Shown in pieces: positions 43,500-64,000 of a DNA stretch of 64,000 nucleotides. The stretch's first letter is position 1. Each line of letters opens with the position of its first letter. A program made the position numbers and the translations under genes. The notes beneath the pieces are model-generated. The model made no database searches, was not told the origin of the DNA, and saw nothing but the letters and a program-made list of their open reading frames with translations. Source of the DNA: Gammaproteobacteria bacterium (GTDB taxonomy: Bacteria > Pseudomonadota > Gammaproteobacteria > SZUA-229); the NCBI GenBank assembly GCA_029882215.1, contig JAOULC010000007.1:13546-77545 (forward strand). The letters run 5' to 3'.

Positions 43500-43511
43500 G
43501 CTAAACCGGTT

Positions 43512-46409: not shown

Positions 46410-46425
46410 ATTCATAATTATGAAT
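46410..46425. promoter_or_regulatory. Perfect 16-bp palindrome ATTCATAATTATGAAT in the dapF-dctP divergent intergenic region (candidate operator)
   Basis: Seen in sequence. It lies 78-93 bp upstream of the dctP ATG in a 550-bp AT-rich region. Confidence 0.3.
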
Positions 46426-46502
46426 AATAAAATTTTTGGTCATTCCTGCGGATTATCCGTATTGAGAGCCAATACAACCACAATTATCGAGGATTTTTCT
46501 AT

Positions 46503-47510: not shown

Positions 47511-47582
47511 TCTACCTTTCCAGTTACTGGAATCTCAGGGGGTGATTTTTTACCCCCTGACTTTTAAGCTAAAAAAAATACT

Positions 47583-48104: not shown

Positions 48105-49381
48105 TGACAATTGCACTGCTCTTTATTGGCCTTTTAATCTTACTGCTGATTGGTGTACCGATTGCCGTCAGTCTGGGTTTAAGCAGCCTCTCATATTTAA
48201 TGCTGGCAACCGATGATTCTCCAACCATCATTGCACAAAAATTATTCGACACAATGGAACACACCACCTTACTGGCGATTCCATTCTTTATCCTGTCATC
48301 ACACTTCCTGACCACCGGCGGTGTATCAAACCGCCTGGTCGAGTTTGCAAAATCACTGGTTGGCTGGATGCACGGAGGTCTGGCGATGGCAGGTGTTGTC
48401 TCATGCATGCTGTTTGCCGCTATTTCCGGCTCATCACCGGCGACCGTTGTCGCGATAGGCTCTATCTTAATTCCAGGCATGATCAAAGCCGGTTATGACA
48501 AACGCTTTGCGGTAGGTGTTATTGCCACAGCCGGCAGTATGGGTATCTTAATTCCACCGTCCATTCCGATGATTGTATATGCCGATGCGGTGGAAGAGTC
48601 TGTTGGTAAGATGTTCATTGCCGGTATTTTACCGGGCATCCTGATGGGTGTTTTGCTAATGCTTGCAACCTGGGTCACAGCGCGTCATTTAAAGATGCCA
48701 CGTGAGCCCTGGCAGGGATTTTCTCATATCTTCAAGACTTTTCGACACGCCTTCTCGGGTTTGTTTTTGATCGTCATTGTGGTCGGCGGGATTTATGGCG
48801 GGATTTTCACGCCAACAGAAGCTGCCGCGGTCGCTGCCGTCTACTCGGCCTTTATTGCACTCTTTGTGCATAATGATATGACCCTGAAAGACGTACCACA
48901 AGTGATGCTCGACTCCGCCAAGATGACTTCTGTTATTATGTTTATCATTGCCTGTGCAATGATCTTTGCGCATGTTCTAACCGAACAACAAGTACCACAA
49001 ACCTTATCTCAAATCGTTATTGAACAAGACCTGAGTCCCGGTGCCTTCCTGTTTATGGTGAACGTCATTCTGTGGTTTGCCGGTGACTTTATGGAGCCTT
49101 CATCAATTCTGTTGATTCTGGCACCATTGTTCCATCCTATTGCACTGACGCTGGGCATAGACCCGATCCATCTGGGCATTGTAATGACCACTAACATGGA
49201 AGTCGGTATGATCACACCGCCGGTTGGTCTTAATCTTTATGTCGCAGCCGGCTTAACCGGTATGACACTGGGACAGGTAACACGTGCAGCCCTGCCTTGG
49301 ATGGGGGTCATGATCGTCGCCTTAATCATCATTACCTATGTACCCTGGTTTAGCCTCTATCTTGTGAACCTACTGTACTAA
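48104..49381 (+). CDS. dctM: TRAP transporter large permease DctM
   Basis: 425-aa 12-TM protein with a 1-nt overlap with dctQ. Confidence 0.85.
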   Translation: MTIALLFIGLLILLLIGVPIAVSLGLSSLSYLMLATDDSPTIIAQKLFDTMEHTTLLAIPFFILSSHFLTTGGVSNRLVEFAKSLVGWMHGGLAMAGVVSCMLFAAISGSSPATVVAIGSILIPGMIKAGYDKRFAVGVIATAGSMGILIPPSIPMIVYADAVEESVGKMFIAGILPGILMGVLLMLATWVTARHLKMPREPWQGFSHIFKTFRHAFSGLFLIVIVVGGIYGGIFTPTEAAAVAAVYSAFIALFVHNDMTLKDVPQVMLDSAKMTSVIMFIIACAMIFAHVLTEQQVPQTLSQIVIEQDLSPGAFLFMVNVILWFAGDFMEPSSILLILAPLFHPIALTLGIDPIHLGIVMTTNMEVGMITPPVGLNLYVAAGLTGMTLGQVTRAALPWMGVMIVALIIITYVPWFSLYLVNLLY

Positions 49382-49399
49382 TTAGCTACTTCATTAGCT

Positions 49400-49442
49400 C
49401 AACAAACCCGCTACTCGTCAGACTAGCGGGTTTGTTGTTTTT
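49400..49442 (+). terminator. Rho-independent terminator after dctM
   Basis: 14-bp perfect stem caacaaacccgcta…tagcgggtttgttg followed by T5. Confidence 0.8.
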
Positions 49443-49454
49443 GGATACATCGTT

Positions 49455-50198
49455 ATGCTGCTTGAATTTAGTGCTTTACAAATTTTTCTGACCGCACTGA
49501 TTTTTATCTGGTCTGGTTTTGTACGCAGCGGCCTGGGATTTGGTGGCGCGGCACTGAGCCTGCCCTTATTGCTCATCGTTTATGATCAGCCGATTTTCTG
49601 GATGCCCATTATTGGCGCCCATTTACTCCTGTTTTCTGCACTGACACTGCGGACCCGCCTGAGAAGCATCAGCTGGGAATACCTGTTACGTTCAATGCCG
49701 ATCATCTTACCGACAACCATCGCCGGTGTCTTCGGGCTTATTAGCTTGCCCAATAAAATCATACTTATTTTTATTTATAGCGTCACGCTGTTCTACGCTA
49801 TCATGTGGATGCTGCGCGTTACCATACACAGTTCAAACCGCTGGGTAGATCGCTTTTTACTGGCACTTGGCGGCTATATCGTTGGCACGTCATTAAGTGG
49901 CGCACCTTTGATCGTTGCGGTTTATATGAAAAATATCGCACCACAACATTTACGCAACACCTTGCTATTATTATGGTTTGTACTGGTTGGTATAAAAATG
50001 GCGACGTTCACCGTGTTCGACGTGGATTTACAGCTCGATAGCGCATTGATGCTAGTACCTGTTGCGGCTATTGGTCATATCATCGGTTTAAAACTGCATG
50101 ATATGATTCTTGAAAAAGATCAGCAGTTTAAACGTGTTATCGGCGTTGCTTTGCTGGTGGTTTGTGTACTCGGACTGTGGAAAATTTTAAATAGCTAA
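49455..50198 (+). CDS. TauE/SafE-family (DUF81) anion exporter-like membrane protein
   Basis: 247 aa, ~8 TM, with a Gly-rich N-terminal TM region typical of TauE/SafE. Confidence 0.6.
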   Translation: MLLEFSALQIFLTALIFIWSGFVRSGLGFGGAALSLPLLLIVYDQPIFWMPIIGAHLLLFSALTLRTRLRSISWEYLLRSMPIILPTTIAGVFGLISLPNKIILIFIYSVTLFYAIMWMLRVTIHSSNRWVDRFLLALGGYIVGTSLSGAPLIVAVYMKNIAPQHLRNTLLLLWFVLVGIKMATFTVFDVDLQLDSALMLVPVAAIGHIIGLKLHDMILEKDQQFKRVIGVALLVVCVLGLWKILNS

Positions 50199-50282
50199 AC
50201 CTTTTTATCAGCGTCACTGGCTTTGCAGCTGCTCAATATACTGAATAAAATATATTCTGTAGCTGAAAGCATTTGTATTTAT

Positions 50283-50885
50283 CTAGCTCATTTTCCATAC
50301 AAGTATTCTGTTATTGACCGGCATCTCAATATCTTCCTGCAAAACAAAACCGGCCTTTTCTGCAAATACGGTCAGCTCTGACATGTCTCTGATACCACTT
50401 GCCTCATCTCTTTGTTTAAGCCAGTGATCAAAACGCGCATTACTTTCACTGCTGAACCGACCATCTTTATTAAACGGCCCGTAACAACAAAACAAAGCGT
50501 CTTTATTTAATAGTTTACCCAGCCCTGCAAATAGTTTTTCTACATGCAAAATCGACATAATATGCAATGTATTGGCGCTAAACACAGCATCATAATCAGC
50601 TGTTAGTCCCCAGTGTTGCTGTGCAACATCGAGCACCAGCGGCGCTTCAATATTGTCTAAACCGGCATCTTCTACCCAGATATTAACTCCCGCTACATTT
50701 TCTGCAAGTTCAGTCGGCTGCCATCGCAGATGCGACAGGTGCCTGGCAAAGTGCACCGCATGCTGCCCTGTTCCGCTGCCTATTTCGAGCACACAGTCTG
50801 AATTTGCATAAAGCACCATTAATTGCTCGAGAATAACCGTTTTATTTTCTTCAGATGACTGTGAAAATGGCTTAGTAGATTTCAT
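50283..50885 (-). CDS. Class I SAM-dependent methyltransferase (DUF938-like)
   Basis: SAM motif LEIGSGTGQHA at the N-terminus, 200 aa. Confidence 0.6.
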   Translation of the reverse strand: MKSTKPFSQSSEENKTVILEQLMVLYANSDCVLEIGSGTGQHAVHFARHLSHLRWQPTELAENVAGVNIWVEDAGLDNIEAPLVLDVAQQHWGLTADYDAVFSANTLHIMSILHVEKLFAGLGKLLNKDALFCCYGPFNKDGRFSSESNARFDHWLKQRDEASGIRDMSELTVFAEKAGFVLQEDIEMPVNNRILVWKMS

Positions 50886-50899
50886 GACTGTCCTGTTTA

Positions 50900-52180
50900 T
50901 TAATGACGATAGACAGAACAGGCAAATAATCGTCGTTCTATATCGCGGATAACTTGAATATATTCTTCACTGCTTAAATTGCCATATTCAATTCTGAATT
51001 CTTCGGCCGTTAATCCTTCCTGCAGGCCACTGATATCCGCCATTATTTCATCTTCCGAACTTAGCTGACTCAGCCTGCTCTGTATTTCAACTGCTCTTGC
51101 CGGTGACTGTGCTAAGGTCGCCAGCTTATTACCGGCAATATCAGCCATCAGATCCACAAAACTAAACCCGCTGCCGCCGTTAGCATCTTTAAGCTCTTTC
51201 CTTAATCCTATCGCATTTGACCAGACAGAATCGCTCATCATATTAATGGCACTGCTGATAAGGTAGTGCTTTGTTAAATCACCACGGTCTTTCAGAGTAA
51301 GTTCAATTCTCGGGCGCACGGACAATGTCTCATCACTGACATATGACAGCGGATTTTTATTAATCGTATATGCTGCCAAAGTCAGTAAGGCAATTCGATT
51401 TTCTTCAACAGCCTGTTCATTTATCAGCGACCGCTTCTGTGCAAATGTAAAGATTGGCGCAACAACATTTATAACCGACTGTTCTTTTGTATCAAGCTCA
51501 CTAAGTATCCTGTCCATTTCAAGCGCATAAGCACTGATACGCTCTCGCTGAACATCATCGACTGCCACTTTTTTTATGACACTTCTCAGCTTACTGTAAT
51601 CGATGCGCTTAATCTGATAGTGAACTGTCATCGCAGAATCAGCGACATCAATACGCTTAACCAGTTTCCACAATAAATAATACGATGGATAGTGTTCTTT
51701 AATATAATCGGCAATGGCCGGTTGCAAATAATGCAGAACAACAGACGGCACCGATAAATGTCCTATGCTCATTTCATCAATCACAAAATATCTGGCATAA
51801 CCAACACTCATTGTCAGTTTAATATTAATAAACTTTCCCAGCGGATTTGATGGTAAACGGTAGGACAGATCTGAATATATGATTCCCTTTTTTAAATTCA
51901 CACTGGCGCGCAATTTGTTTTCTAAAAATTGATTTGCAAAGCGCAGCAAGTCATTCAGCTCACTGTCTGTTATTTGTAACTGCACCTTAGCAGCCGATAC
52001 TACTTTTGCCGGTGAATTTTCCGAAGCAAGCTGTCGTATCCTCGCAACATCCTGATCAGTCAGTGGCAGCGGTGCCGGTACTGAGGCGCTATCATCAACT
52101 GAAATAAACACAGCACCGGCAAGCAGAACTAGCAAGCATAAAATCGTTATTACAATTGTGTAGAGTAAAGTTTTGATCAT
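50900..52180 (-). CDS. Hypothetical membrane-anchored periplasmic protein (426 aa), third gene of the DUF2062 operon
   Basis: A single N-terminal TM helix and a large soluble domain. It starts 36 nt after the upstream gene. Confidence 0.45.
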   Translation of the reverse strand: MIKTLLYTIVITILCLLVLLAGAVFISVDDSASVPAPLPLTDQDVARIRQLASENSPAKVVSAAKVQLQITDSELNDLLRFANQFLENKLRASVNLKKGIIYSDLSYRLPSNPLGKFINIKLTMSVGYARYFVIDEMSIGHLSVPSVVLHYLQPAIADYIKEHYPSYYLLWKLVKRIDVADSAMTVHYQIKRIDYSKLRSVIKKVAVDDVQRERISAYALEMDRILSELDTKEQSVINVVAPIFTFAQKRSLINEQAVEENRIALLTLAAYTINKNPLSYVSDETLSVRPRIELTLKDRGDLTKHYLISSAINMMSDSVWSNAIGLRKELKDANGGSGFSFVDLMADIAGNKLATLAQSPARAVEIQSRLSQLSSEDEIMADISGLQEGLTAEEFRIEYGNLSSEEYIQVIRDIERRLFACSVYRH

Positions 52181-52216
52181 TTAATTGTCCATATAATCTG
52201 TTGATCACGAAAATAT

Positions 52217-53944
52217 TTATTTTTTATATTTATTTAATTTTTCAGTAATGTCTGTCTGCTTAGTATTAATCGATCTTTTAAGATCATCCAGGCCGGCAAC
52301 TGACTGCTCAATACTATCAATATCAGCTGCATACTTATTTTTAATTTTCAATGCCAGCTGATCTTCATAATCTTTTCTGATTTTTGCAAAGCTGGCACTG
52401 AGCTGTTTATTGATTTTATTATCAATATCAGAGTCGATCTTGATATCCGGTTTATTCAGCGTACCTTTCAGCTCGGCATTAATATTAAACTCGCTGATAT
52501 TCAGCATGGCGGCCGTCACTAATGATGAAAAACTTTTGTCCGACGGGTCTTTTGTGCTATCAAATTTTACTTTTTTAAACCGTGCATCGACATCAGCACT
52601 TAATTTACCCGACTGTAAACTGGCTTTCGACCGCATATCCAGCATCGCCGTTTCCATTACCAACGGCAAGCTTGTACCGGCAGAGACTTCATACTGTCTT
52701 ATATTTCGCTGATCAATATCATAATTTACAGCAAAGCGCGGAGCTTTCTTATCTCTAAGATCTAACACCGCACTCATTATCTCTGATTTGCTATGAATGA
52801 GATCTTTACCGCTTAGTTTTATCTCTGCCGGTTTATTATTGATTTTCTGATCAAAGGCAATATAACGGGCTTTGCCGTCAAACTTCCCTGCTGGCAGTCT
52901 TGCTGTAAAGCCCGCCTTTTTAATCAAAAACCCAGGCTGAGGGTCATTATCCTTAAATTCAACATACCTGCCCTGACCTCTGACAATCTGCTCCTCACTT
53001 GCTTCATCTGCTGCAACATAGGGGGCAATTTTTTTATACACATTTCTGGCCGATTCAATATAACCTGTAATCTCTTCACTAAAAAGAAGCCGGCTTATAT
53101 TTGCAACACCGCCTGAATTCAGGCTGATGGAAGATTTTATTTTTTGCAGATCTTTACCCGGCATTTTTTTAGCCTGCGCATATAAAATATTTAGCTCATC
53201 TGAATCTTTTTTTAGTTTGTCTTTATCTTTTTTTATTTCCCGCAGTTCATCTGACACTTCATTTTTTAAATCTTTGAAATCTTTAAGCGCCTGCAGTTTC
53301 TCTTTTGCACTGCCGCTTTTAATGTTTGTTTTAACGGTATTATAACGACTGCTATATCCATCCCACTTGTTTTTATCACTGACTCTTGACTCTATATCAG
53401 CCCAGCTTACTTTCGTTTGTTTTGCTTTTTCATTAACAGCTTTAAATGCATTCTCTGTATCCAGGCCTGTTTTATTAATGAGCTCATCCATATCCGGCAT
53501 CGTTAAAGATGAGGCACCCATAAAGCCGTTGCCCGCATCTGTTTCTGGCGTCTTCTCCTCTTGAGTCTGATCTTCTTCAACAAAGACTGCACCGGCCTGC
53601 ATTCGCTGAGTGGCAAACTGAATATTGTCCAGCTGTAGCTCATTAACAATAAAGCGTCCTCTTAACAGTGAGCGGGTATCGACTTCAAGCACCGCCTTAC
53701 TGATCTCCAGTGAATTCTCAAGCGGATTTTCATTATTAGTTACCTGAATCTTATCGAGTTTAATAACCAGGGGATTAAACGCGACGGCTGCTTCATTAAT
53801 ATTTACTTCTGCGCCATTTAGCGAGGACAACTGTGACTGCAGAATCATTTTGCTGATGCTGGCAGAGAATAACACCAGCGTTAAAACACTTAGCAATGCA
53901 AGGCTAAGTAGTATGATCAGGCCTTTTGTTCTTATCAGATTCAT
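52217..53944 (-). CDS. Uncharacterised envelope protein, TIGR03545-like / AsmA-like (N-terminal TM anchor, Lys/Glu-rich coiled-coil centre)
   Basis: 575 aa with an N-terminal TM. It is paired head-to-tail with a DUF2062 gene at a 1-nt gap. The family assignment is from recalled knowledge of the TIGR03545/TIGR03546 gene pair. Confidence 0.45.
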   Translation of the reverse strand: MNLIRTKGLIILLSLALLSVLTLVLFSASISKMILQSQLSSLNGAEVNINEAAVAFNPLVIKLDKIQVTNNENPLENSLEISKAVLEVDTRSLLRGRFIVNELQLDNIQFATQRMQAGAVFVEEDQTQEEKTPETDAGNGFMGASSLTMPDMDELINKTGLDTENAFKAVNEKAKQTKVSWADIESRVSDKNKWDGYSSRYNTVKTNIKSGSAKEKLQALKDFKDLKNEVSDELREIKKDKDKLKKDSDELNILYAQAKKMPGKDLQKIKSSISLNSGGVANISRLLFSEEITGYIESARNVYKKIAPYVAADEASEEQIVRGQGRYVEFKDNDPQPGFLIKKAGFTARLPAGKFDGKARYIAFDQKINNKPAEIKLSGKDLIHSKSEIMSAVLDLRDKKAPRFAVNYDIDQRNIRQYEVSAGTSLPLVMETAMLDMRSKASLQSGKLSADVDARFKKVKFDSTKDPSDKSFSSLVTAAMLNISEFNINAELKGTLNKPDIKIDSDIDNKINKQLSASFAKIRKDYEDQLALKIKNKYAADIDSIEQSVAGLDDLKRSINTKQTDITEKLNKYKK

Positions 53945-53945
53945 C

Positions 53946-54461
53946 TTAACTAACCCGCTCTGCCACTGCTGTTAACTTTCCTAACAGTTTCGACTGACTT
54001 ATGTACTGAAACAAGCGCGAGCTTTTCCAGTGTTTTTCAATCGCCACCCTGTATCGCTTAATCAAAAAATTTGAAAGTAGAAATAAAGGTATAAAAGCGG
54101 CCAGTGATATCACTAAACTGCCCATATTCAGGGTATTGTTAAACCGTAACAGGTACCAGAAACTATTGTTATACATCCAGCTAAACAACGAATTCAGTTC
54201 TGCAACTGATAACACTGCACTGCCAAGCTGAAGCAGCAGCGGATCTAACAGATAGGCAATAATGCTGATCAGTCCTGCTGACAGCATCAGCACCGACAGA
54301 TTCGCCCGCAAGATGATCAGCAAAACAACGGCCAGCAATGCTTGTATTGAAATCGCAGGCGACAACCCCAGTACAAAACCCAGACAGATCCCAAGACTCA
54401 ACTGAGCCGGCTCGATGTCTGAGCTCATTAGTCTAATTATCTTTGCAAAAGACGATATCAT
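53946..54461 (-). CDS. DUF2062-family small inner-membrane protein (TIGR03546-like)
   Basis: 171 aa with 3-4 TM helices. The N-terminal LSLGICLGFVLGLSP is typical of DUF2062. Confidence 0.5.
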   Translation of the reverse strand: MISSFAKIIRLMSSDIEPAQLSLGICLGFVLGLSPAISIQALLAVVLLIILRANLSVLMLSAGLISIIAYLLDPLLLQLGSAVLSVAELNSLFSWMYNNSFWYLLRFNNTLNMGSLVISLAAFIPLFLLSNFLIKRYRVAIEKHWKSSRLFQYISQSKLLGKLTAVAERVS

Positions 54462-54769
54462 TATTTATCCTCTGGTCTTATTAGTGAGTCTGCAGTGATT
54501 TATCAAAATACTAGAGTAAAAGCAGCTGATTATAATGCTTAATCTTAGACGACAGCTTAGTAAAGTAAACGCCCGCATTTTATCAGTTTGAAGCAGGGCT
54601 CTAAAGTGCATTATATACACCTGAAATTGCCGATTCCGATAACAGGGAGGTATTTTCCGATTATAACGACTAAAATAAGCTGATATCTCATATATAATTG
54701 ATCTTCAGAGGTCAATCCATCAGCTTGTTTTACAGACCATTTTTTTTGCCTGTCAAAGTGTATTTAGCC

Positions 54770-55288
54770 ATGAAGTTCTTACAATTTGTATTCACATTAC
54801 TCATCATTTCAGCAATCTCGCTTAACTGCCGGGCCGAAGAACTCTCTCGCGAGCAAATAAAAGGCCTTGATGAACAGGTACAGGACATTAAAAAAGATGT
54901 TCTGGCCATCTCAGCGGAATTAACCTTGCTGGAGGAAAAACTGCTCTATCCCTCTAATACACAGGTTTCCATTTTTATATCCGTGGCCAAAGACAGCCAG
55001 TATACCCCTGATGCAGTACAAATTAAGATCGACGATAAGGATGTTGCCCACCATATCTATAGCTATAAGGAAGTCGGCGCCTTACAAATGGGCGGCGTAC
55101 AACGTGTCTACACTGGTAATATCCGCGGTGGTGAGCATAAACTGGATGTGAGTGTCATCGGCCAACAGGCAGGGAATGACGCATATAACAGCAAAAAGTC
55201 ATTCACCATAACAAAGAAAGTGGGCGCAAAGCTGGTCGAAATACAGCTAGGCTCCGGTTCAGCCTTAATTCAAATTAAAGAAAGATAG
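54770..55288 (+). CDS. Secreted hypothetical protein (first gene of the TPR / TolQ-TolR / TonB-like operon)
   Basis: A classical signal peptide MKFLQFVFTLLIISAISLNCRA|EE. The upstream in-frame extension uses TTG and is rejected. Confidence 0.55.
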   Translation: MKFLQFVFTLLIISAISLNCRAEELSREQIKGLDEQVQDIKKDVLAISAELTLLEEKLLYPSNTQVSIFISVAKDSQYTPDAVQIKIDDKDVAHHIYSYKEVGALQMGGVQRVYTGNIRGGEHKLDVSVIGQQAGNDAYNSKKSFTITKKVGAKLVEIQLGSGSALIQIKER

Positions 55289-55291
55289 CTC

Positions 55292-57229
55292 ATGAATCGC
55301 TTCATGATGATGCTGGCCATGGTAACAGCCCCTGTTATAGGCGCAGCACAGGTCCCAGCTGCCGAAAAAACCGATTTATACTTTAGCGAAGGCCTGTATT
55401 ACGCCTATCAGGGCAATTATTTTGATGCCATCAGCCGGCTTGATGCTGAACTTGGCCAATACCACGGGCTTGATGAACCGGAATTAAATTCATTACACTA
55501 CTACATTAATAATGCCGAATTTTCCATTGGCGATTTCGAGCTATATTACCGTATGCATAAGCGGGCCGGGCGGGCCATCAAGTCCGTTATAGAAGGCGAT
55601 GTTGAAGACAGCATAAAAAATGAAGCCGCTTACCGGCTGGCAAAAATATTTCATGAAAAACAACAAGCTAAGGAAGCTCTGGACACTGTCCAGCGGATAA
55701 CAGGTGCTGTTCCGGACACCATTAAATACGACCTGGCTTTACTCAAAGCGCAGATTTATATCTCCAACAAACTCTTCAAAGAAGCCATCTCGTTACTGGC
55801 TGGTATTCAGCATGATACTGAAGTGGCCGGTTTTGCAGCCTACAATCTGGCGCTCGCTTTTATTGGTAATAATGAAATTGATAAAGGTTTGTCACAGCTC
55901 GACACCGTCGGCCAGATAAGCTCAAATGATCTGGCTGTACTGGGTATAAAGGATAAGGCCAATCTGGTTCTCGGCTATAAACTGATGGAAAACGATAAAC
56001 CCGAGCAAGCCAAGAAATACTTCCAGCGTATCCGTTTAAACGGCCCCTTCTCAAACCGCGCCTTGCTCGGTTTAGGCTGGGCTGATATAGCTGCACAAAA
56101 CTACAAGCGTGCCCTCGTGCCATGGACCATGCTGAGTAAAAGAGCACCGACAGAGTCATCGGTGCAGGAAGCCTTATCCGGCTTACCGTTTGCTTACGGT
56201 AAGCTAGAAGCGCATGGCAGGGCCGCAATTTTATACGGCAACGCACTTGAAACCTACAGTCAGGAACTCGTCAAACTGGATGCCTCCATCAAAAGTATCC
56301 GTGAAGGCAAGTTCCTCGAAGCCGTTGTCAGGGAGGAATTTAACAAGGATAAAAACTGGCTGATTAACCTGCGTGATTTACCGGACAGCCCGGAAACGCA
56401 CTATTTAATGCAATTGCTGGCATCAAACGACTTTCAGGCATCTCTAAAAAACTATTTTGACCTGGTCCAGCTCGGTAAAAAAATACTGTCATGGGATGGT
56501 TATCTGGACTCTTATGATGAGATCATTGCAAAACGTAAGAATTACCTGACACCATTATTCCCTTCGGTACAGGATCAGTTCCGTGCTCTCGACTCACGGA
56601 TGAAGCTGCGACTGACACAACAAGAAAAAATCACCAGCCGGCTCAATAACATGCTGATTGCACCAAGGCCTGATTTTCTGGCCACGGCTGATGAACGAAT
56701 TGCGATGAATAAAATATACGCGCTGGAAAAACAACTCGCTAAAACTAAATCCCCCGACAAACAGGCCAGCGAGCGACTACAGCGTTTAAAAGGCGTGATT
56801 AACTGGAACATTGAAACACAATATCAGGCCAGATTCACCGAAGCTTATAACAGCTCTCGCTCACTTGATGAGGGCTTTGTTAAATTAAACGGGATTTATC
56901 GCTCTTTTGTCAGAACCCGCCAGGCCGCCACACAAAGTTACATCGGTTATGACGCGAGCATCCGCCAACTACGGGTGCGCATCAAAGCCGCCGATGAACG
57001 AATTAAGTTACTGCTTTCCCGGCAAGGTTACATGCTGGAAAAAATGGCCATACAGGAATTACAGGTCAGTCGCAAACGTATCGAAGAACTGCAGATTAAA
57101 GCCCGCTTCGCACTGGCCGAAAGTTATGACCGTGCGCTTAAAGCCAAACAAAAAGCCGAACTTGAAAAAGCACTTAAAGAAAATGAAGCTCAGTCCGCAC
57201 CGGTTATCGATAAAGGTGAGAAAAAGTGA
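55292..57229 (+). CDS. Periplasmic tetratricopeptide-repeat protein (645 aa)
   Basis: A signal peptide, multiple TPR-like helical repeats, and a coiled-coil C-terminus. It has a 4-nt overlap with the next gene. Confidence 0.7.
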   Translation: MNRFMMMLAMVTAPVIGAAQVPAAEKTDLYFSEGLYYAYQGNYFDAISRLDAELGQYHGLDEPELNSLHYYINNAEFSIGDFELYYRMHKRAGRAIKSVIEGDVEDSIKNEAAYRLAKIFHEKQQAKEALDTVQRITGAVPDTIKYDLALLKAQIYISNKLFKEAISLLAGIQHDTEVAGFAAYNLALAFIGNNEIDKGLSQLDTVGQISSNDLAVLGIKDKANLVLGYKLMENDKPEQAKKYFQRIRLNGPFSNRALLGLGWADIAAQNYKRALVPWTMLSKRAPTESSVQEALSGLPFAYGKLEAHGRAAILYGNALETYSQELVKLDASIKSIREGKFLEAVVREEFNKDKNWLINLRDLPDSPETHYLMQLLASNDFQASLKNYFDLVQLGKKILSWDGYLDSYDEIIAKRKNYLTPLFPSVQDQFRALDSRMKLRLTQQEKITSRLNNMLIAPRPDFLATADERIAMNKIYALEKQLAKTKSPDKQASERLQRLKGVINWNIETQYQARFTEAYNSSRSLDEGFVKLNGIYRSFVRTRQAATQSYIGYDASIRQLRVRIKAADERIKLLLSRQGYMLEKMAIQELQVSRKRIEELQIKARFALAESYDRALKAKQKAELEKALKENEAQSAPVIDKGEKK

Positions 57230-60200
57230 AGCCGTTAAAAGCGACATTTATTTTCAGCCTGGCCTTTGTAAGCGCCTGCTCCAGCATTGATAAAAGAACC
57301 ATAGAAGGTCTGCTTGATGTTGAAATAGAAGTCAAAGATGTTGATATTCAGGGTGGCGCGCAAAAAGCCATGCAAAGCTATCAGCAGTTCCTCGAAAGCA
57401 CACCTGATTCGGCAATGACACCGGACGCCATACGCCGTTTAGCCGATCTTAATATCGAACAGGAATACGGTGTCATCAACGACACTGAAAAAACATCACT
57501 CAGCCAGCCTGAAATAGCAAAAATCAGTCCGGCAGAAGCGGCGACATCAAACCCAGCCACAGACAAAACTTCAACTGCCGAAGACAAAGCCGGTAGCACA
57601 AAAACGGCAGGTGACTCAGCAACTAAAGCAGCCATCACAGGCCCTAAAGAAAAAGACCAGCCGCTGATTCTTGCCGATGGTTCAAACCTTGAAGACCTGC
57701 AAACCGAGGGCGCACAAAAGGCCATAGCGCTGTATTTAAAGCTACTGAAGAAATTTCCGGACTACGAGCGCAATGACCAGGTGCTTTATCAGTTATCACG
57801 CGCCTATGAAGAAACAGGGCAGGTTGAAGAAGCCATGCGGGTAATGAACCGGCTGATCAAAGAATACCCTCTTTCACGGCACTTCCCTGAAGTTCAGTTC
57901 CGTCGGGGCGAATACTTTTTTACCCGCAAGAAATTACTTGATGCCGAAGACGCTTATAAGTCACTGATAGACACCGGTAAAGGCTCGGAATATTTTGCGC
58001 TTGCACTCTACAAGCTGGGCTGGACATTTTACAAACAGGAATTATACGAAGAAGGCCTGCATAATTTTATCGGCCTATTAGATTACAAACTCAGCACCGG
58101 CTATGACTTTGAATCCAGCACTAATGATGCTGAAAAAAAACGTCATGAAGACACTTACCGGGTTATCAGCTTAAGCTTTTCAAATCTCGGCGGCCCGGAT
58201 GCCGTGATCAGTTATTTCAATAAGTTCGGTTCCAGAAGCTATGAACATGAAGTCTACGCACAACTGGCTGAGCATTACCTGATCAAACGCCGTTATAGTG
58301 ATGCCGCGAAAACATATAATGCGTTTATCGAGCATAATCCTTTCAGTAAATCATCACCTCACTTTAGTATGCGGGTGATTGATATTTATCAGAAAGGCGG
58401 TTTCCCGCGGCTGGTTATTGAAGCCAAAAAAGCCTACTCTGTTACTTATGGTTTGCGTGCTGACTACTGGAAGTATTTCAACCCGTCACAGCATGAAGAT
58501 GTTATTGCCTACTTAAAGAAAAATATTATTGACCTTGCCAATCACTATCACGCACTCTATCAAAACAAACGTTTGCGGGACAAGCGACCGGCTAACTTTA
58601 AAGAAGCCTCACACTGGTACAGAGAATTTCTTCTTTCGTTTCCTAAAGATGAAGAATCCGCTGGTATTAACTACCAGCTGGCCGATTTATTCTTAGAAAA
58701 CAAAAACTTTTTACTGGCCGCCGTCGAATATGAAAAAACCGCATACGACTACAAGTTAAACGAAAAATCATCCGAAGCCGGATATTCTGCCGTTTACGCT
58801 TATAGCCAGCATTTAAAGGTTGTCTCTGCCTATGAAAAGCTGACGATCAAACGTCAGGTAATCCGTACCTCGCTTAAATTTGTAGATGTCTTCCCGCAGC
58901 ACAAAAAAGCTGTAAGCATCCTCGCAGCCGCTGCAGATTACCTGTATGAGCTGAAAGACTTTCAGCTGGCGATCAATGCCTCGCATAAGCTGATCAAGAA
59001 CTACCCGTCTATTGAGCAGAAGCAGTTACGCTCTTCATGGCTGGTTATTGCCTACGCCTCTTTTGATTTGCTTATTTACAATGATGCAGAAACCGCTTTC
59101 ATTAATGTGCTCGCTATCCGCCTTAAAGATGAAAGTAAAAAACAGCGCCTTGAGTTACAGGAAAACCTGGCAGCTGCCGTCTATAAGCAAGGTGAACAGG
59201 CCGTCAAACTTGAGGATTATGCACTGGCTGCCAGTCACTTTTTACGCGTTGGCCAGTTAGTACCGCATTCTAAAATACGCTCAACGGCAGATTACGATGC
59301 CGCGACCGCCTTTATCCAGCTAAAAGACTGGCCACGTGCCGCTGAAGTACTGGTTGCCTTCAGAAAAGCCTATCCAAGCCATAAGCTGCAAAAAGAAGTT
59401 ACCAAGAAAATGGCTTATGTTTATCAGGAGAATAAAGAATACAACAACGCCGCAAGAGAATATGAACGCATTGCGCGTGACACGCTCGATAATGACATTC
59501 GACGCGAATCACTATTAACTGCTGCCGACCTTTACCAGAAAGTACCTGACCAGCAAAATGAACTGCGTATATACATCAGCTTCGTTAAGCTGTTTCCAAA
59601 TCCGGTGGAAGACTCACTTGAGATCAGTAATAAAATTGCGACCATATATAAATCAACTAATGACCGTGAAAATTACTTAAAAACCCTTAAGCACATTATT
59701 GCCGTCGACGCGAAAGCCGGAAAACAACGTACAGATCGTACACGTTATCTTGCCGGCATGGCACAGCTGGCTGTGATAGAGCCGCTGTACACAAATTTTG
59801 TGGCACTTAAACTGGTTAAACCCTTCAAGAAGAATCTGAAGAAAAAACAAAACCAAATGAAAGCGAATATTAAGCGCTACAATAATCTGGTTGACTACGG
59901 TGTCGGCGATGTAACTGCTGCTGCCACCTATTATATTGCCGAGACTTATTACAACTTTAGCCGTTCACTGATGGAGTCTGAGCGTCCTGCCAAACTGTCG
60001 GATCTGGAGCTGGAACAATATGAAATCATTCTGGAAGAGCAGGCCTATCCGTTTGAAGAAAAAACGATAAATATCCACAAGAAAAACATCGAGCTCTTAT
60101 CGGTCGGCGTGTATAGCCAGTGGATAGATAAGTCACTGAAAAAGCTGGGGCAACTGGTACCGGGACGATATGCCAAATACGAAGAAAGTAGCGGCGTGTT

Positions 60201-60513
60201 GAACTCTATGCTGAGCTATACCTACATTGTTAAAAAATTAGCGCCGGTAAAACCCGCCACAGAGGCGCCCGTCACTGATAAGACGGACACGGCACAAAGC
60301 GGCGTTAGTGATAAGGAGCCAACTGCAGAGGTGAATCAACAAACAGCGGCTCCAGCTATTAATGAGCCCGTCAACGATGAAGCTAAAGTGCCAGCTGATG
60401 CCGCTGTTAACAATAACGCGACAAATGCTGAAACGGAAGTTAAAGCAGACGCTCCTGCAACTAAAGAGCCCGCAGCGACTGTCACTGACAGTCAGCAAAC
60501 CGATGAAAACTAA
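57226..60513 (+). CDS. Large TPR-repeat lipoprotein (1095 aa) with low-complexity Ala/Thr/Glu-rich termini
   Basis: Lipobox VSAC, extensive TPR-like repeats, and a C-terminal low-complexity tail. Confidence 0.7.
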   Translation: MKPLKATFIFSLAFVSACSSIDKRTIEGLLDVEIEVKDVDIQGGAQKAMQSYQQFLESTPDSAMTPDAIRRLADLNIEQEYGVINDTEKTSLSQPEIAKISPAEAATSNPATDKTSTAEDKAGSTKTAGDSATKAAITGPKEKDQPLILADGSNLEDLQTEGAQKAIALYLKLLKKFPDYERNDQVLYQLSRAYEETGQVEEAMRVMNRLIKEYPLSRHFPEVQFRRGEYFFTRKKLLDAEDAYKSLIDTGKGSEYFALALYKLGWTFYKQELYEEGLHNFIGLLDYKLSTGYDFESSTNDAEKKRHEDTYRVISLSFSNLGGPDAVISYFNKFGSRSYEHEVYAQLAEHYLIKRRYSDAAKTYNAFIEHNPFSKSSPHFSMRVIDIYQKGGFPRLVIEAKKAYSVTYGLRADYWKYFNPSQHEDVIAYLKKNIIDLANHYHALYQNKRLRDKRPANFKEASHWYREFLLSFPKDEESAGINYQLADLFLENKNFLLAAVEYEKTAYDYKLNEKSSEAGYSAVYAYSQHLKVVSAYEKLTIKRQVIRTSLKFVDVFPQHKKAVSILAAAADYLYELKDFQLAINASHKLIKNYPSIEQKQLRSSWLVIAYASFDLLIYNDAETAFINVLAIRLKDESKKQRLELQENLAAAVYKQGEQAVKLEDYALAASHFLRVGQLVPHSKIRSTADYDAATAFIQLKDWPRAAEVLVAFRKAYPSHKLQKEVTKKMAYVYQENKEYNNAAREYERIARDTLDNDIRRESLLTAADLYQKVPDQQNELRIYISFVKLFPNPVEDSLEISNKIATIYKSTNDRENYLKTLKHIIAVDAKAGKQRTDRTRYLAGMAQLAVIEPLYTNFVALKLVKPFKKNLKKKQNQMKANIKRYNNLVDYGVGDVTAAATYYIAETYYNFSRSLMESERPAKLSDLELEQYEIILEEQAYPFEEKTINIHKKNIELLSVGVYSQWIDKSLKKLGQLVPGRYAKYEESSGVLNSMLSYTYIVKKLAPVKPATEAPVTDKTDTAQSGVSDKEPTAEVNQQTAAPAINEPVNDEAKVPADAAVNNNATNAETEVKADAPATKEPAATVTDSQQTDEN

Positions 60514-60646
60514 ACATAAGGCCTGTTTTATCAGGAATATATGCATATTAGTCACTAATTACTCACATTAGAGTAATATCTAATATAATTAATTAGTTAC
60601 TGACCAAAAGTAACGATATGGACACCGACACACTTGAAACATCACT

Positions 60647-61261
60647 ATGCTTAGTTTAATTAAACATCGCCGTAAGCCACTCAGCCTGCTATTAATGACA
60701 AGCCTGCTGAGCGCCTGCATGGTCGCAGAAGTTAAGCAGGAAGCTGACGATGAACGTGATATCGTTATTTCAGAAGAGTACGGTGTTGATGCTGATGTCA
60801 CACAAAAATTTAACCAGGCTGTTGAACTCATTGGCCAGAAACAATACGAGAAAGCAGTTACTTTGTTAACCGATGTAACCGCCCGAACCGACAAGCACAG
60901 TGCCCCTTATGTTAATCTGGGTGTGGCCTATGCAAAACTTGGAAAAATTGATGAAGCCGAAGAAAACTTGCTAAAAGCTCTAAAAATCAACCCGCTTCAT
61001 CCGGTGACGAATAATGAGCTGGGCATAGTTTATCGTCAGCGCGGACGTTTTGAAGATGCCAAGAAGGCTTATCAAGCCGTCATCAGCCGTTACCCAAGAT
61101 TTCTTCCTGCTATCAGAAACCTTGGCATATTATGTGATATTTTTATGAATGATCTTGAATGTGCTATAGAACAATATGCTGCCTATTTAGAATATTCTCC
61201 GGATGAGAAAAATATTCAAATCTGGCTGACTGATCTTCAACGCCGCGCGGGTAAAAACTAA
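60647..61261 (+). CDS. TPR-repeat lipoprotein (204 aa)
   Basis: Lipobox LSAC and three or four TPR motifs (…AVELIGQKQYEKAV…; …LGVAYAKLGKIDEAEENLLKALKINP…). Confidence 0.7.
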   Translation: MLSLIKHRRKPLSLLLMTSLLSACMVAEVKQEADDERDIVISEEYGVDADVTQKFNQAVELIGQKQYEKAVTLLTDVTARTDKHSAPYVNLGVAYAKLGKIDEAEENLLKALKINPLHPVTNNELGIVYRQRGRFEDAKKAYQAVISRYPRFLPAIRNLGILCDIFMNDLECAIEQYAAYLEYSPDEKNIQIWLTDLQRRAGKN

Positions 61262-61530
61262 TGTCTTTAAAGCTGTTACCACTTTTCGCAGTTATTATAT
61301 CGCTGCTGACTGTTACTGCTCAGGCTGAGGAAGTAAAATCACTGTCCGGTATTTCCATAATCGGTAATAAAGATGCGCCTAAGTCGCTTTATATTGTGCC
61401 GTGGAGAAGTGCCGAATTAGGTATGGAGTCCGATTTGAACTCAAGTTTACTGAATGAGGGCCTGCATCCCATCGATAAAGACGTGTTTTTAAGAGAACTG
61501 GATTTTTATCAAATCAGTAAATCAAAATGA
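61261..61530 (+). CDS. Small secreted protein (89 aa)
   Basis: Signal peptide, and a TAATG overlap with the preceding gene. Confidence 0.45.
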   Translation: MSLKLLPLFAVIISLLTVTAQAEEVKSLSGISIIGNKDAPKSLYIVPWRSAELGMESDLNSSLLNEGLHPIDKDVFLRELDFYQISKSK

Positions 61531-61568
61531 TTTAACCTTATCTATTTAATATATTAAGAGGAATAAAG

Positions 61569-62213
61569 ATGGAGTTTATTAATACAATAATCTCATTCAT
61601 ACAGGACGGTGGTACTTTTATGTACCCGATACTGGTGGTATTTGCGATTGGCGCTGCAATTGCAATGGAAAGAAGTATCAACCTTTCTATTGTCAGAAAG
61701 AAAAACATTAAAGTTTGGGATGAGATTAATCCGGTAATGGCTGAGCATGACTTTGACAAAGCCAGAGAAATGACCACCGGTGATAATTCTGCCATCGCCA
61801 CACTGATCAGTATGGGACTGGCCAGAGAGGGCACTGTGCGCCGCCGTGACGATATCGAAATCGGCATGGAAGAAGCCATGCTGGAAATCACTCCGCAGCT
61901 GGAAAAACGCACCGCTTATGTTGCGTTGTTAGCCAATATATCGACCCTGCTGGGCTTACTTGGAACCATCATGGGACTGATCGAGGCCTTTACCGCGGTT
62001 GCTAATGCAAACCCGGCTGAAAAAGCGGACATGTTATCTGCCAGTATTTCGGTAGCGATGAACACCACGGCCTTTGGTCTGATTGCAGCGATTCCTTTAC
62101 TAATTTTTCATGCGTTCTTAATCTCCAAAACCAGTGATATTACAAATAGTCTTGAAATGGTTTCGGTAAAAACACTGAACTACATTACTGATTCTGCAAG
62201 ACGTCAGGGGTAG
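61569..62213 (+). CDS. MotA/TolQ/ExbB-family proton channel protein
   Basis: 214 aa with 3 TM segments. The conserved C-terminal TM region …TLLGLLGTIMGLIEAF… is typical of TolQ/ExbB. Confidence 0.85.
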   Translation: MEFINTIISFIQDGGTFMYPILVVFAIGAAIAMERSINLSIVRKKNIKVWDEINPVMAEHDFDKAREMTTGDNSAIATLISMGLAREGTVRRRDDIEIGMEEAMLEITPQLEKRTAYVALLANISTLLGLLGTIMGLIEAFTAVANANPAEKADMLSASISVAMNTTAFGLIAAIPLLIFHAFLISKTSDITNSLEMVSVKTLNYITDSARRQG

Positions 62214-62221
62214 GTACTGAT

Positions 62222-62725
62222 ATGTCCCGTGCTCGTCGTCGTAAAGGTCTGGATAAAGAACCACCGGAACTGGATATCACCACCTTCCTGAATCTGATGG
62301 TTGTATTGATTCCATTTTTGCTGCTTTCTGCTGTTTTCTCTCGCATCACGATAATGGAGCTTGATGTTCCAACAGCCGGTGTTGGTGGTGCTAAAAATGA
62401 AAAGCCCACACTGGAGCTGGAAGTTATAGTACGCAAAAAAGTGATCGAAATCAGTAACGGCAAAGGTGTTGTTGCCCGCATGGCCAACATTGACGAGAAA
62501 TATGATATTGAAAAATTATCGGACTACCTGCAAAAAATTAAAAAAAATTACCCCGATAAAACTGACGCTATCATCTTGATGGAACGCACGCTTGAGTATG
62601 AACATTTAATTACAATTATGGATGTTGTACGAAGTGCTTCTTATAAAGACATGACAAATCCGGCCTCACCAATGACCAAGCAAACCATTCTATTTCCACA
62701 TATCTCAGTTGGCGATGCCCCATGA
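62222..62725 (+). CDS. ExbD/TolR-family protein (paralogue 1)
   Basis: The N-terminal basic segment and single TM (ITTFLNLMVVLIPFLL) are typical of ExbD/TolR. 167 aa. Confidence 0.8.
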   Translation: MSRARRRKGLDKEPPELDITTFLNLMVVLIPFLLLSAVFSRITIMELDVPTAGVGGAKNEKPTLELEVIVRKKVIEISNGKGVVARMANIDEKYDIEKLSDYLQKIKKNYPDKTDAIILMERTLEYEHLITIMDVVRSASYKDMTNPASPMTKQTILFPHISVGDAP

Positions 62726-63219
62726 AAGTTTCCCGCCGCATGAAGCGGATGTCTTCAACCAACAAGCATAAAGCAGGAGGGCTAAGCCTTGTTTCATTAA
62801 TGGATGTATTTACCATACTGGTATTCTTCCTGCTGACCAACTCATCATCTGATGAAGTGTTAACTAACCCGAAAGAAATTGCCTTGCCGGAGTCGTCGAT
62901 AGAGACCAAGCCACGCACCACGATTGTCATCTTTGTCGGCGCTGAAACCATCCTGGTACAGGGTGAGATCGTGATGTTAACGGCGGATGCACTCGAGCAA
63001 AAAGCAGAAATTCTCAGGCCGGTAAAAGACAAACTACTGGCGCAAAAAGACAACGTAATTGGTGTCTCTACAAAGGCTATTGCCGAGAGCACCGAGGTTA
63101 CCGTGCTGGCTGATAAAAAGGTACCTTTCTATTTGCTAAAGAAAATTATGACGACAAGTACCAGTTCAGGGTATGAAAAAATCTCCCTGGCGGTAATCCA
63201 GAAAGCAGCTAAAAGCTAG
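62722..63219 (+). CDS. ExbD/TolR-family protein (paralogue 2)
   Basis: Single TM SLMDVFTILVFFLL, 165 aa, with an ATGA overlap with paralogue 1. Confidence 0.8.
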   Translation: MKVSRRMKRMSSTNKHKAGGLSLVSLMDVFTILVFFLLTNSSSDEVLTNPKEIALPESSIETKPRTTIVIFVGAETILVQGEIVMLTADALEQKAEILRPVKDKLLAQKDNVIGVSTKAIAESTEVTVLADKKVPFYLLKKIMTTSTSSGYEKISLAVIQKAAKS

Positions 63220-63228
63220 AGTGATATT

Positions 63229-64000
63229 GTGACGACCTTAGCTTCATCAAAACAACAGGACTTAGACAGCCAGATTCAGCAGGCTACACGTGAGCACGAG
63301 CAGTTAAAGCAAAAGCTGCTGACTGTAGAAACCGAGCTTGAAGACAAACTCGGCCAGCTTTCAGACTATCAGCAACTGATTGAAATCAGCAACCAGCTTG
63401 AACAGTTACACAGCTCCGGTGCCGGCCAGCTTTTCTGGGAAGGATTGTTTTCAAGCGAGCAGGAACTGATATCACATATTGCTGTACTGCGTAAAAAAGC
63501 AAGCGACTACGATGCCGCCATCGAAGCCATCAGACAGAAAAAACTGGACGTAGAACACAAGATTAAAGATGTCATTCACAAAATGGCATTTCTTGAGGAA
63601 GATCTCCAGTTACTGCAGGAACTGGAAGCTGACAAAGAAAATGACTTTAATGTTACCCGTGATATAGACAGACTCCCGCACCGGGAAACCATCATGCCAT
63701 GGAGCGGTACCAAAGAAGATCAGAGACGAATCCGCTCTTTTTTGTTGCTGGCCATTATATTCAGCATCTCATCCGCTCTGCTTATTCCTTTATGGACTCA
63801 GCCCATTCCTGATAAAGATGAAGTAGTTAAAATACCTGAGCGCCTGACTAAATTTATTGAGAAGAAAAAGGAAAAAGAAAAACCCAAGCCTGAAGCTAAA
63901 ACGCAGAAAAAGGCTGCCTCATCCGATACCAAGCCAACTGAAAAGGAAACCAAGAAAGCGCGTGAAAAAGCTGCTAATTCTGGCCTGCTGGCTTTCAAAA
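63229..64000 (+). CDS. TonB/TolA-like energy-transducer protein with long cytoplasmic coiled-coil N-terminal domain (3'-partial, continues beyond the window)
   Basis: Manual translation from GTG 63229: ~165 aa of heptad-rich coiled coil, then a single TM (FLLLAIIFSISSALLIPLW), then a Lys/Glu/Pro-rich linker (KKKEKEKPKPEAKTQKK…). No stop codon occurs before the window ends. Confidence 0.6.
   Translation, partial: MTTLASSKQQDLDSQIQQATREHEQLKQKLLTVETELEDKLGQLSDYQQLIEISNQLEQLHSSGAGQLFWEGLFSSEQELISHIAVLRKKASDYDAAIEAIRQKKLDVEHKIKDVIHKMAFLEEDLQLLQELEADKENDFNVTRDIDRLPHRETIMPWSGTKEDQRRIRSFLLLAIIFSISSALLIPLWTQPIPDKDEVVKIPERLTKFIEKKKEKEKPKPEAKTQKKAASSDTKPTEKETKKAREKAANSGLLAFK

Follow-up and report, generated by a model that had tools for sequence, protein, structure and literature searches.

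The window analysed here is a stretch of 64,000 nucleotides (nt) of contig JAOULC010000007.1 from a gammaproteobacterial genome. An operon runs on its + strand from position 54770 to the window end, and its gene order, protein sizes and profile matches support its place as a genuine member of the Agl-Glt core complex, a module already published. Across roughly 130 related loci this module is locked, in either order, to two further genes, one encoding a giant fibre built of CLIPPER domains and the other a protein with repeated OmpA domains. As the operon itself belongs to a known module, the added value lies in the comparative result. What is new is the near-universal link to the giant fibre and the OmpA-repeat protein, a conserved first gene (g1) and a stator in which only one of two ExbD/TolR paralogues keeps its transmembrane Asp; none of the three was found described in the searchable literature. 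The function of the core in non-gliding bacteria has been open since 2011, and the synteny offers a first candidate cargo. We consider it probable that the Agl-Glt core is a machine driven by proton-motive force (PMF) which exports, anchors or tensions the giant fibre at the cell surface.

Nine co-directional open reading frames (ORFs; g1-g9) lie on the + strand at the positions given in a preliminary description of this DNA. Its inventory of three TPR proteins, one TolQ/ExbB-type protein, two ExbD paralogues and a TonB-like protein, with the sizes of all nine genes, is confirmed by the ORFs and by Pfam:

g1, 54770..55288, + strand: 172 amino acids (aa) from ATG; secreted (signal peptide), modelled as a long helix of coiled-coil type and an immunoglobulin (Ig)/transthyretin-like beta-sandwich of 8 strands
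g2, 55292..57229, + strand: 645 aa, periplasmic TPR protein; GltC equivalent (MXAN_2541 homologues) by position and size
g3, 57226..60513, + strand: 1095 aa, TPR lipoprotein with lipobox VSAC and Ser at +2; GltD equivalent (MXAN_4870 homologues)
g4, 60647..61261, + strand: 204 aa, TPR lipoprotein with lipobox LSAC; equivalent of the short gammaproteobacterial GltE homologues
g5, 61261..61530, + strand: 89 aa, secreted, with a signal peptide
g6, 61569..62213, + strand: 214 aa, MotA/TolQ/ExbB-family proton channel in the AglR position; PF01618 MotA_ExbB
g7, 62222..62725, + strand: 167 aa, ExbD/TolR paralogue in the AglQ position; PF02472 ExbD; Asn in place of the transmembrane Asp
g8, 62722..63219, + strand: 165 aa, ExbD/TolR paralogue in the AglS position; PF02472 ExbD; canonical transmembrane Asp kept
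g9, 63229..64000 (to 64566 beyond the window), + strand: GTG start, first 257 of 445 codons in the window; GltG-like

A giant fibre gene and an OmpA-repeat gene linked to the core

Past position 64000, where the window cuts g9, the unit continues. The ENA contig L001, identical to window positions 52722-64000 (0 mismatches over 11,279 nt), supplies the complete g9 of 445 aa, ending at would-be window coordinate 64566. It is followed on the same strand by a gene for a 4344-aa protein, the giant, which starts at would-be window coordinate 64947. Relatives were drawn from a species-level genome scan (one genome per species), in which a close relative of g9 turned up in at least 561 genomes and from which 80 loci were fetched, and from a metagenome scan anchored on the C-terminal tail of the giant, which gave 80 loci. 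Synteny counts rest on 84 independent loci, and with the tail-anchored set about 160 related loci were compared overall. The 80 loci fetched from the genome scan come from Microbulbifer, Thiohalomonadaceae, Thiotrichaceae, Ectothiorhodospiraceae, Acidiferrobacterales, Gallionellales and others. Because all 84 independent loci are colinear to the contig edge, with all nine genes present in 61, the gene set is not a product of chance. Upstream neighbours vary among these loci. Downstream, a giant ORF is next on the same strand in 69 of the 70 loci having at least 1.5 kb after g9, and it is the only conserved neighbour of the cluster in the 84 loci; neither receptor nor polysaccharide loci recur beside it. 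In a reciprocal test, homologues of the giant N-terminus were found directly after the cluster in Alkalilimnicola ehrlichii and in three metagenome contigs, and in Thiobacillus-like contigs the cluster is followed by a large ORF broken off at the contig end.

The giants range from about 1,300 to more than 4,300 aa, and most run off the locus after 2,000-3,300 codons. They are colinear orthologues rather than proteins that merely have repeats in common: pairwise comparisons gave 60% identity across 1663 aa and 42% across 2406 aa. Each begins with a Sec signal peptide and finishes in a conserved tail of about 90 aa, and between these lie CLIPPER/DUF11, CLIPPER_2, DUF7619, SdrD_B and TIGR04226 isopeptide-forming fimbrial domains (PF01345 in up to 7 stretches, TIGR01451 6 times, TIGR04226 5 times). 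CLIPPER domains, a CnaA-like kind of Ig domain with isopeptide bonds, make up fibrillar-adhesin stalks (PMC12617251). With a signal peptide, tandem domains and predicted isopeptide bonds, the giants appear to be CLIPPER-stalk fibrillar adhesins. The C-terminal two-thirds and the tail are common to all, and the N-terminus is of at least three unrelated types (A in L001, L008 and L047; B in L030, L038, L033 and L056; C in L023, L067, L010 and L044). Some type A giants have, about 2,800 aa from their start, an internal region that part of the type B N-terminus matches, a hint of modular gain or loss of the distal part. The variable N-terminus, the conserved tail and the isopeptide-type domains would suit a cell-anchored, force-bearing fibre that points outwards. 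An outer-membrane export signal of a known kind was not found in it. The tail was also considered as a degenerate OmpA domain and this was dropped, since profile comparison gave a plausible register with a probability of only 0.6% (E 0.097).

Most assemblies break at this locus because of the giant genes, which are therefore likely to be more prevalent than the counts show. The 4344-aa giant was called on three contigs, and a protein search with the N-terminal 450 aa of the giant listed 43 fragmentary proteins, all shorter than 800 aa, with the 4344-aa protein itself missing. Antisense ORFs of 200-1,400 codons recur opposite the giant and OmpA-repeat genes (L008, L012, L024 and many other loci). 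They group into families only through the homology of the sense genes, and appear to be shadow ORFs of repetitive, high-GC coding sequence rather than genes. In Microbulbifer (L069:11535-13690 and L070:4098-6304) two genes matching no family (about 424-442 and 295 aa) stand between the GltG-like and giant genes.

The second partner lies beyond the giant. An OmpA-repeat ORF follows it in 63 of the 66 tail-anchored loci with enough sequence, with a median length of 1704 aa and a start about 27 nt past the giant stop, and in 4/4 genome or contig loci reaching that far a protein of this kind likewise starts beyond the giant. It has a signal peptide, three OmpA peptidoglycan-binding domains and a C-terminal region of about 700-900 aa, the end of which is highly conserved (GYNFTDFSDDLTDLSY..G.FINLIGK-hydrophobic). 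From the character of its sequence the C-terminal region is probably an outer-membrane beta-barrel; it had no match in Pfam or NCBIfam and a sole PDB profile match, at E 0.34, to a designed transmembrane beta-barrel.

Core genes lie within 10 kb of the giant in 38 of the 80 tail-anchored loci. They are upstream in 24 and downstream in 14, the latter showing a permuted order of giant, OmpA protein, g1, g2 and g3. The linkage outlasts this change of gene order, which argues that core, giant and OmpA-repeat genes form a functional unit. Two variants were seen on metagenome contigs: in L165 g1 and g2 are inverted relative to g9 and upstream of it, and in L169-L171 a g9 relative precedes a short giant, with no g6-g8 match at E 1e-8.

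Membership of the Agl-Glt core and the parts of the machine

Luciano et al. 2011 described a core of Group B genes (gltC, gltD, gltE, gltG, aglR, aglQ and aglS) found in Gamma- and Betaproteobacteria, Geobacter and Fibrobacter (PMC3169522). Their Table S3 covers Marinobacter, Saccharophagus, Teredinibacter, Hahella, Cellvibrio, Shewanella frigidimarina, Thioalkalivibrio and Methylibium (PMC3169522). The order there is GltC (550-692 aa), GltD (933-1016), GltE (162-263), one skipped locus tag, AglR (217-272), AglQ (168-188), AglS (162-185) and GltG (321-535). Genes g2-g9 match the order and sizes in these eight published genomes one for one and, with a g9 of GltG type, they bear out the assignment to the Agl-Glt core that the preliminary description had proposed. 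That description had left out GltC, to which the 645-aa g2 corresponds by position and size, and had treated one TolQ with two TolR, combined with very large TPR proteins and a TonB-C-like partner, as the signature of the Agl/Glt core; an ExbD paralogue pair alone is not diagnostic. Later papers of the Mignot group (to 2020-2025) still give the function of the core as unknown and speculate on transport or secretion. Literature searches for the Agl-Glt core with adhesins or giant proteins, or in Marinobacter, Saccharophagus or Cellvibrio, and for DUF11 together with ExbD/TolQ/OmpA, found no functional work on the core, and nothing was found on locus tags adjoining the published clusters.

The junctions from g1 to g9 measure 3, -4, 133, -1, 38, 8, -4 and 9 nt. 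The description of one tightly packed unit with gaps or overlaps of 0-40 nt therefore holds for all junctions but one, the g3-g4 gap of 133 nt. This loosest junction is also the site of the best, if weak, promoter-like match in a scan of L001:

60562..60589 (L001 7841-7868), + strand: possible internal sigma-70-like promoter, CTCACA-16-TATAAT, consensus 10/12; weak

Promoter and terminator consensus scans of L001 did no better than shuffles, and there were fewer promoter sites overall than in the shuffles. The gap between g9 and the giant gene is longer, at 380 nt (L001:11846-12225; would-be window 64567-64946), and AT-rich. No terminator-like site was found in it, and the giant gene might have its own promoter in this genome. 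The spacing can be far shorter in relatives, a downstream open frame beginning 53 nt past g9 in L004.

The match of g6 to PF01618 is clear (E 2.3e-24), and its scores against the equivalog models are low (TolQ 53 bits, cut-off 221; ExbB 40 bits, cut-off 206); solved ExbB and TolQ structures are equally distant from it, and its motifs in transmembrane (TM) helices 2 and 3 are conserved over 73 loci. Likewise g7 and g8 match PF02472 (E 3e-15 and 1e-12) and reach 16-21 bits against ExbD equivalogs with cut-offs of 153 and 216, and 24 bits against TolR with a cut-off of 127. The two paralogues differ at the residue that binds the proton. In g7 the motif TtFLNLMVVL has Asn for the proton-binding Asp in at least 90% of 76 aligned homologues, and in g8 the motif SLMDVFTILV keeps the Asp in at least 90% of 78. 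Taken with the published Myxococcus motor model of AglR5-AglQ-AglS, this pattern argues for a heterodimeric and asymmetric stator axle with a single protonatable site.

The profile matches of g9 point to a GltG-type transducer. Complete g9 passes the NCBIfam model for the AgmX/PglI C-terminal domain (NF033768; 64.3 bits against a cut-off of 40), and its next-best matches are local ones, at the C-termini of the myxobacterial GltG and GltJ equivalogs. TonB_C and TolA both stay under their cut-offs at E of about 0.01 (TonB_C 16.6 bits, cut-off 24.6), so that the TonB-like protein of the preliminary description is of GltG/GltJ type and carries no canonical TonB C-terminal domain. In the AlphaFold model (AF2) a cytoplasmic helical hairpin (7-137) is followed by a TM helix (162-190), a disordered Lys/Pro-rich linker and a C-terminal alpha-beta-beta-alpha-beta domain (residues 352-441); the cytoplasmic domain of about 160 aa is predicted to be a coiled coil. 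The best Foldseek matches of the C-terminal domain are TonB C-terminal domains (5lw8, 7zc8, 6sly and 2m2k; E 0.004-0.01), and the TonB structures matched include H. pylori TonB, FusB and HasB. The same weak but consistent structural signal of a TonB domain has been reported for GltJ. The TM helices of TonB and TolA carry an SHLS motor-binding motif with a conserved His (PMC12204202). Neither the g9 helix (IRSFLLLAIIFSISSALLIPLW) nor a 12-sequence consensus contains a His, and the motif is therefore absent. Thus g9 would work as a transducer of the TonB/TolA type yet is not a TonB.

Signal peptides of g1, g2 and g5 were read from the sequence. In related loci g1 is always the first gene, with a family of 3595 unnamed members; its model of a long helix and an Ig/transthyretin-like sandwich gave no informative match in a structural neighbour search. 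TPR_16 and TPR_19 match g2, which has syntenic homologues in related loci at 43-67% identity. For g3 there are matches to TPR_6, TPR_14 and YfiO and also to BamD-type TPR, and the YbgF/CpoB TPR model TIGR02795 is passed (104.3 bits against 90.1); a simple pattern search finds a lipobox in 44 of 64 homologues. A tblastn search with g3 against 72,556 plasmids gave zero matches. Many TPR models match g4, which scores 37.7 bits against the myxobacterial GltE equivalog NF033758 (cut-off 225), a model built on proteins of about 410-470 aa. No Pfam or NCBIfam family was found for g1, g5 or the in-window part of g9. The mature part of g5 is nonetheless strongly conserved over 73 loci (KeLSGISIiGNkEAPKSLyIVPWk). 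The text of Luciano et al. 2011 mentions an additional core gene without homologues in Myxococcales, and in Table S3 one locus tag is skipped exactly at the g5 position in every gammaproteobacterial cluster (PMC3169522); g5 is most likely this gene.

The DNA upstream of g1 holds the following genes:

41394-50885: upstream flank with genes of a housekeeping kind, namely GGDEF-EAL, XerC-type recombinase, DUF484, DapF, TRAP transporter DctPQM, TauE-family exporter and DUF938
50900-54461, - strand: divergent genes for a 426-aa protein of no family, a DUF748 protein (575 aa) and a DUF2062 membrane protein (171 aa)

The divergent DUF2062 and DUF748 genes were considered as part of the system and rejected, as they are not conserved neighbours in other genomes.

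A proposed motor-coupled fibre and competing explanations

In the model we favour, g6 would form a TolQ-type pentamer around a TolR-type axle, a heterodimer of g7 and g8, that converts PMF to movement, with only the g8 Asp carrying the proton-binding role. Movement would be passed to the single-pass g9, whose TonB-like C-terminal domain and linker would engage a GltD-like lipoprotein scaffold. This scaffold may consist of g2, g3 and g4 with the small proteins g1 and g5, and would be periplasmic and anchored at the outer membrane. Such contacts have a precedent in Myxococcus, where the periplasmic complex modelled with AlphaFold shows GltG running along GltD, with GltF as a bridge between GltC, GltD and GltG. 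The scaffold would in turn act on the giant fibre and its OmpA-repeat, putatively barrel-forming partner, and so export, retain or pull the fibre. The system could then be viewed as a motor-coupled adhesin and a simpler ancestor of the Myxococcus focal-adhesion motor. The preliminary description had suggested an envelope machine acting on a surface component rather than siderophore uptake, a suggestion strengthened by the conserved neighbour that is probably a surface fibre.

Observed are the gene content, the families, the synteny and the neighbours that recur; the stoichiometry, the contacts between proteins, the barrel, the position of the fibre at the surface and the pull of the motor on it belong to the model. 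Several points weigh against this model. Genetic linkage does not separate export, anchoring, movement and mere co-assembly, and the gammaproteobacterial members are known as sequences alone. The giant and OmpA genes lie outside the window, and of the two the giant alone is documented for this genome. The putative beta-barrel is proposed from sequence character. Orthology with Agl and Glt proteins is argued from NCBIfam models, from matching positions and sizes and from the published phylogeny, where the criterion was a monophyletic clade shared with the M. xanthus protein, and g4 scores far below the GltE equivalog cut-off. The sampled loci all belong to the subfamily with a long GltG (about 440-490 aa), leaving aside the short-GltG clusters of the Marinobacter/Saccharophagus type. 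The linkage also has exceptions. In a Desulfobacterales metagenome-assembled genome (L087) sulfate-activation genes come before a giant-type N-terminus and core genes are absent from the nearest 4.8 kb, and in one from Acidiferrobacterales (L061) the cluster lacks a giant and is followed by a GH3 glycosidase gene.

An envelope tether resembling Tol-Pal, with the giant as a periplasmic layer or strut like the DUF11-containing chlamydial OmcB, is unlikely but survives best among the other explanations. It would account for g3 passing the YbgF/CpoB model and g6-g8 matching the TolQ and TolR models, and for a peptidoglycan-binding OmpA-repeat protein as the conserved partner. The giant, moreover, has a Sec signal with no known signal for export across the outer membrane, and an outer-membrane channel is only predicted, from a barrel region that has no family match. 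However, the CpoB-type TPR model is the only Tol-Pal model passed; TolQ and TolR scores (53/221 and 24/127 bits) are far under their cut-offs, and a TolB-like gene was not found. The variable N-terminus and conserved tail of the giant follow the pattern of an outward-pointing adhesin, CLIPPER and isopeptide domains are typical of surface fibres, and the C-terminal 700-900 aa of the OmpA protein resemble a barrel.

It is improbable that the locus encodes a self-contained surface-motility apparatus, in which the motor drives the giant adhesin, as GldLM does SprB, and the carriers glide. In its favour, the module shares its ancestry with the core of the gliding motor in Myxococcus, the cytoplasmic coiled coil predicted for g9 could couple to intracellular tracks, and a giant adhesin is the conserved partner. 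Against this, none of the Group A genes gltA, gltB, gltH, gltI, gltJ and gltK occurs among the conserved neighbours of the 84 loci or in the 13-kb upstream flank, so that the locus does not hold a complete gliding machinery of the Myxococcus type, and the three OmpA domains suggest a static peptidoglycan anchor.

We give slightly less weight again to a machine for the transport or assembly of a surface polysaccharide, like the Agl-Nfs spore-coat system of Myxococcus, with the giant as an unrelated neighbour or an accessory. In the proposal of Wartel et al. 2013 the core is a basal transport machinery, and sugar polymers are handled by Nfs and Glt. Yet genes for polysaccharide synthesis or export are absent from the 13 kb upstream and from the conserved neighbours of the 84 + 80 loci, and the only conserved partners are two proteins.

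Least probable is an ordinary TonB-ExbB-ExbD energiser for the uptake of nutrients through the outer membrane, equipped with a pair of ExbD paralogues and with TPR proteins as accessories. Pfam does assign MotA_ExbB and ExbD, g9 has a fold like the TonB C-terminal domain, and the Fibrobacter homologues were read in this way by their authors (PMC6851124). Against this, TonB_C and the ExbB and ExbD equivalogs all fall short of their cut-offs (the latter two by far), g9 lacks the SHLS His and has a 160-aa cytoplasmic domain absent from TonB, and a TonB-dependent receptor was found neither within 13 kb upstream nor beside the cluster as a conserved neighbour in the 84 + 80 loci. A TtpC-like MotA/TolQ/ExbB protein of about 450 aa is likewise absent, the 214-aa g6 being the sole MotA_ExbB gene, and the distinction drawn earlier from the Vibrio TonB2/Ttp clusters stands.

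Should the motor indeed export or tension the fibre, it would represent a new way to energise the handling of proteins at the outer membrane and would account for the delivery of Sec-dependent CLIPPER adhesins to the surface of Gram-negative bacteria. Bacterial focal adhesions would then also gain the ancestral state so far missing from their evolution. More tentatively, and with rather more doubt than belief on our part, the ancestral core may have been a PMF-powered envelope machine for one cargo pair, from which Glt gliding and the Nfs spore coat arose by a swap of cargo. The genetic lock to the fibre and the OmpA-repeat protein makes the function of the core testable in the culturable Microbulbifer and Alkalilimnicola ehrlichii.

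Comparison with known systems

In Bacteroidetes, the GldLM motor and type IX secretion provide an example of a PMF-driven motor of the 5:2 type coupled to the secretion and movement of a giant adhesin, SprB. The likeness to the present locus, an analogy drawn by Islam et al., is functional only, with homology limited to the motor superfamily, and neither a C-terminal type IX secretion signal nor Por/Gld genes are present here. Tol-Pal and the locus share a PMF motor of the 5:2 type and a CpoB-like TPR protein, and each has a peptidoglycan-binding partner of the OmpA type and a transducer that crosses the membrane once and ends in a TonB/TolA-like domain. It differs in that the locus has no TolB, has two TolR paralogues, one of them without the Asp, and scores far under the Tol equivalog cut-offs. 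In place of the Pal lipoprotein stands an OmpA partner of 1,700 aa that is not a lipoprotein, and the giant fibre has no Tol-Pal counterpart.

Among CLIPPER adhesins, B9T28_05395 of Acinetobacter silvestris (Costa et al. 2025; PMC12617251) resembles the giant in its signal peptide and tandem CLIPPER/isopeptide-type Ig domains, and in a cell-proximal C-terminal region tied to anchoring of the OmpA type. The OmpA domains are here on a separate neighbouring protein, and a link to a PMF motor is not described for the CLIPPER adhesins in that work (PMC12617251).

Fibrobacter succinogenes offers a clue to function. Its core, Fisuc_1892-1897, was listed as a core complex by Luciano et al. 2011 (PMC3169522); it corresponds to FSU_2397-2403, and the OmpA-family gene FSU_2396 is adjacent (PMC4619616). 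Detection of the TonB-like, ExbD and OmpA proteins was confined to cells grown on cellulose (PMC4619616), and the proteins of the cluster are all up-regulated on cellulose (PMC6851124). A multiprotein complex containing cellulases and the fibro-slime adhesin FSU_2502 was found to include the TPR protein FSU_2397 and the OmpA protein FSU_2396, and the authors viewed the cluster as a TonB uptake system for cellodextrin (PMC6851124). Read with the present synteny, the cluster would fit a role in an adhesion complex. The S85 cluster (FSU_2396-FSU_2403) thus has in common with our locus the core complex, an adjacent OmpA-family gene, a location in the cell envelope and a large adhesin in the complex. 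It belongs, however, to another phylum, no GltE or g1 homologue is listed for it, and its adhesin is encoded elsewhere and is of a different fold family.

The closest relatives are the gammaproteobacterial clusters of Luciano et al. 2011 (PMC3169522), which have the same order, sizes and single co-directional arrangement, a small gene between GltE and AglR and a TonB-like protein of GltG type. The GltG-like protein here is a long form of 445 aa, with a 160-aa cytoplasmic domain predicted to be a coiled coil, compared with 321-334 aa in most gammaproteobacterial examples. Gene g1 is not among the genes listed there and is a conserved extra first gene here, and the tables list neither the giant CLIPPER fibre gene nor the OmpA-repeat gene, both of which are conserved partners in our loci.

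The Agl-Glt and Agl-Nfs systems of Myxococcus xanthus have in common with the locus a TolQR-type motor with two differing TolR-like subunits, a transducer with a domain of the TonB C-terminal type (GltG and GltJ) and the large TPR proteins GltC, GltD and GltE. In the place of gltF, after gltE, stands g5, and both systems have a small secreted protein there. The present locus is without the GltA/B/H/K barrels, GltI, GltJ and AglZ, its GltE is half the size, and the N-terminus of Myxococcus GltG is a predicted FHA domain, in contrast to the cytoplasmic coiled coil predicted for g9. The Myxococcus machinery couples ultimately to a surface adhesin and may be likened in this to the present locus, the adhesin being the vWA lipoprotein CglB in the one and a giant fibre of Ig repeats in the other.

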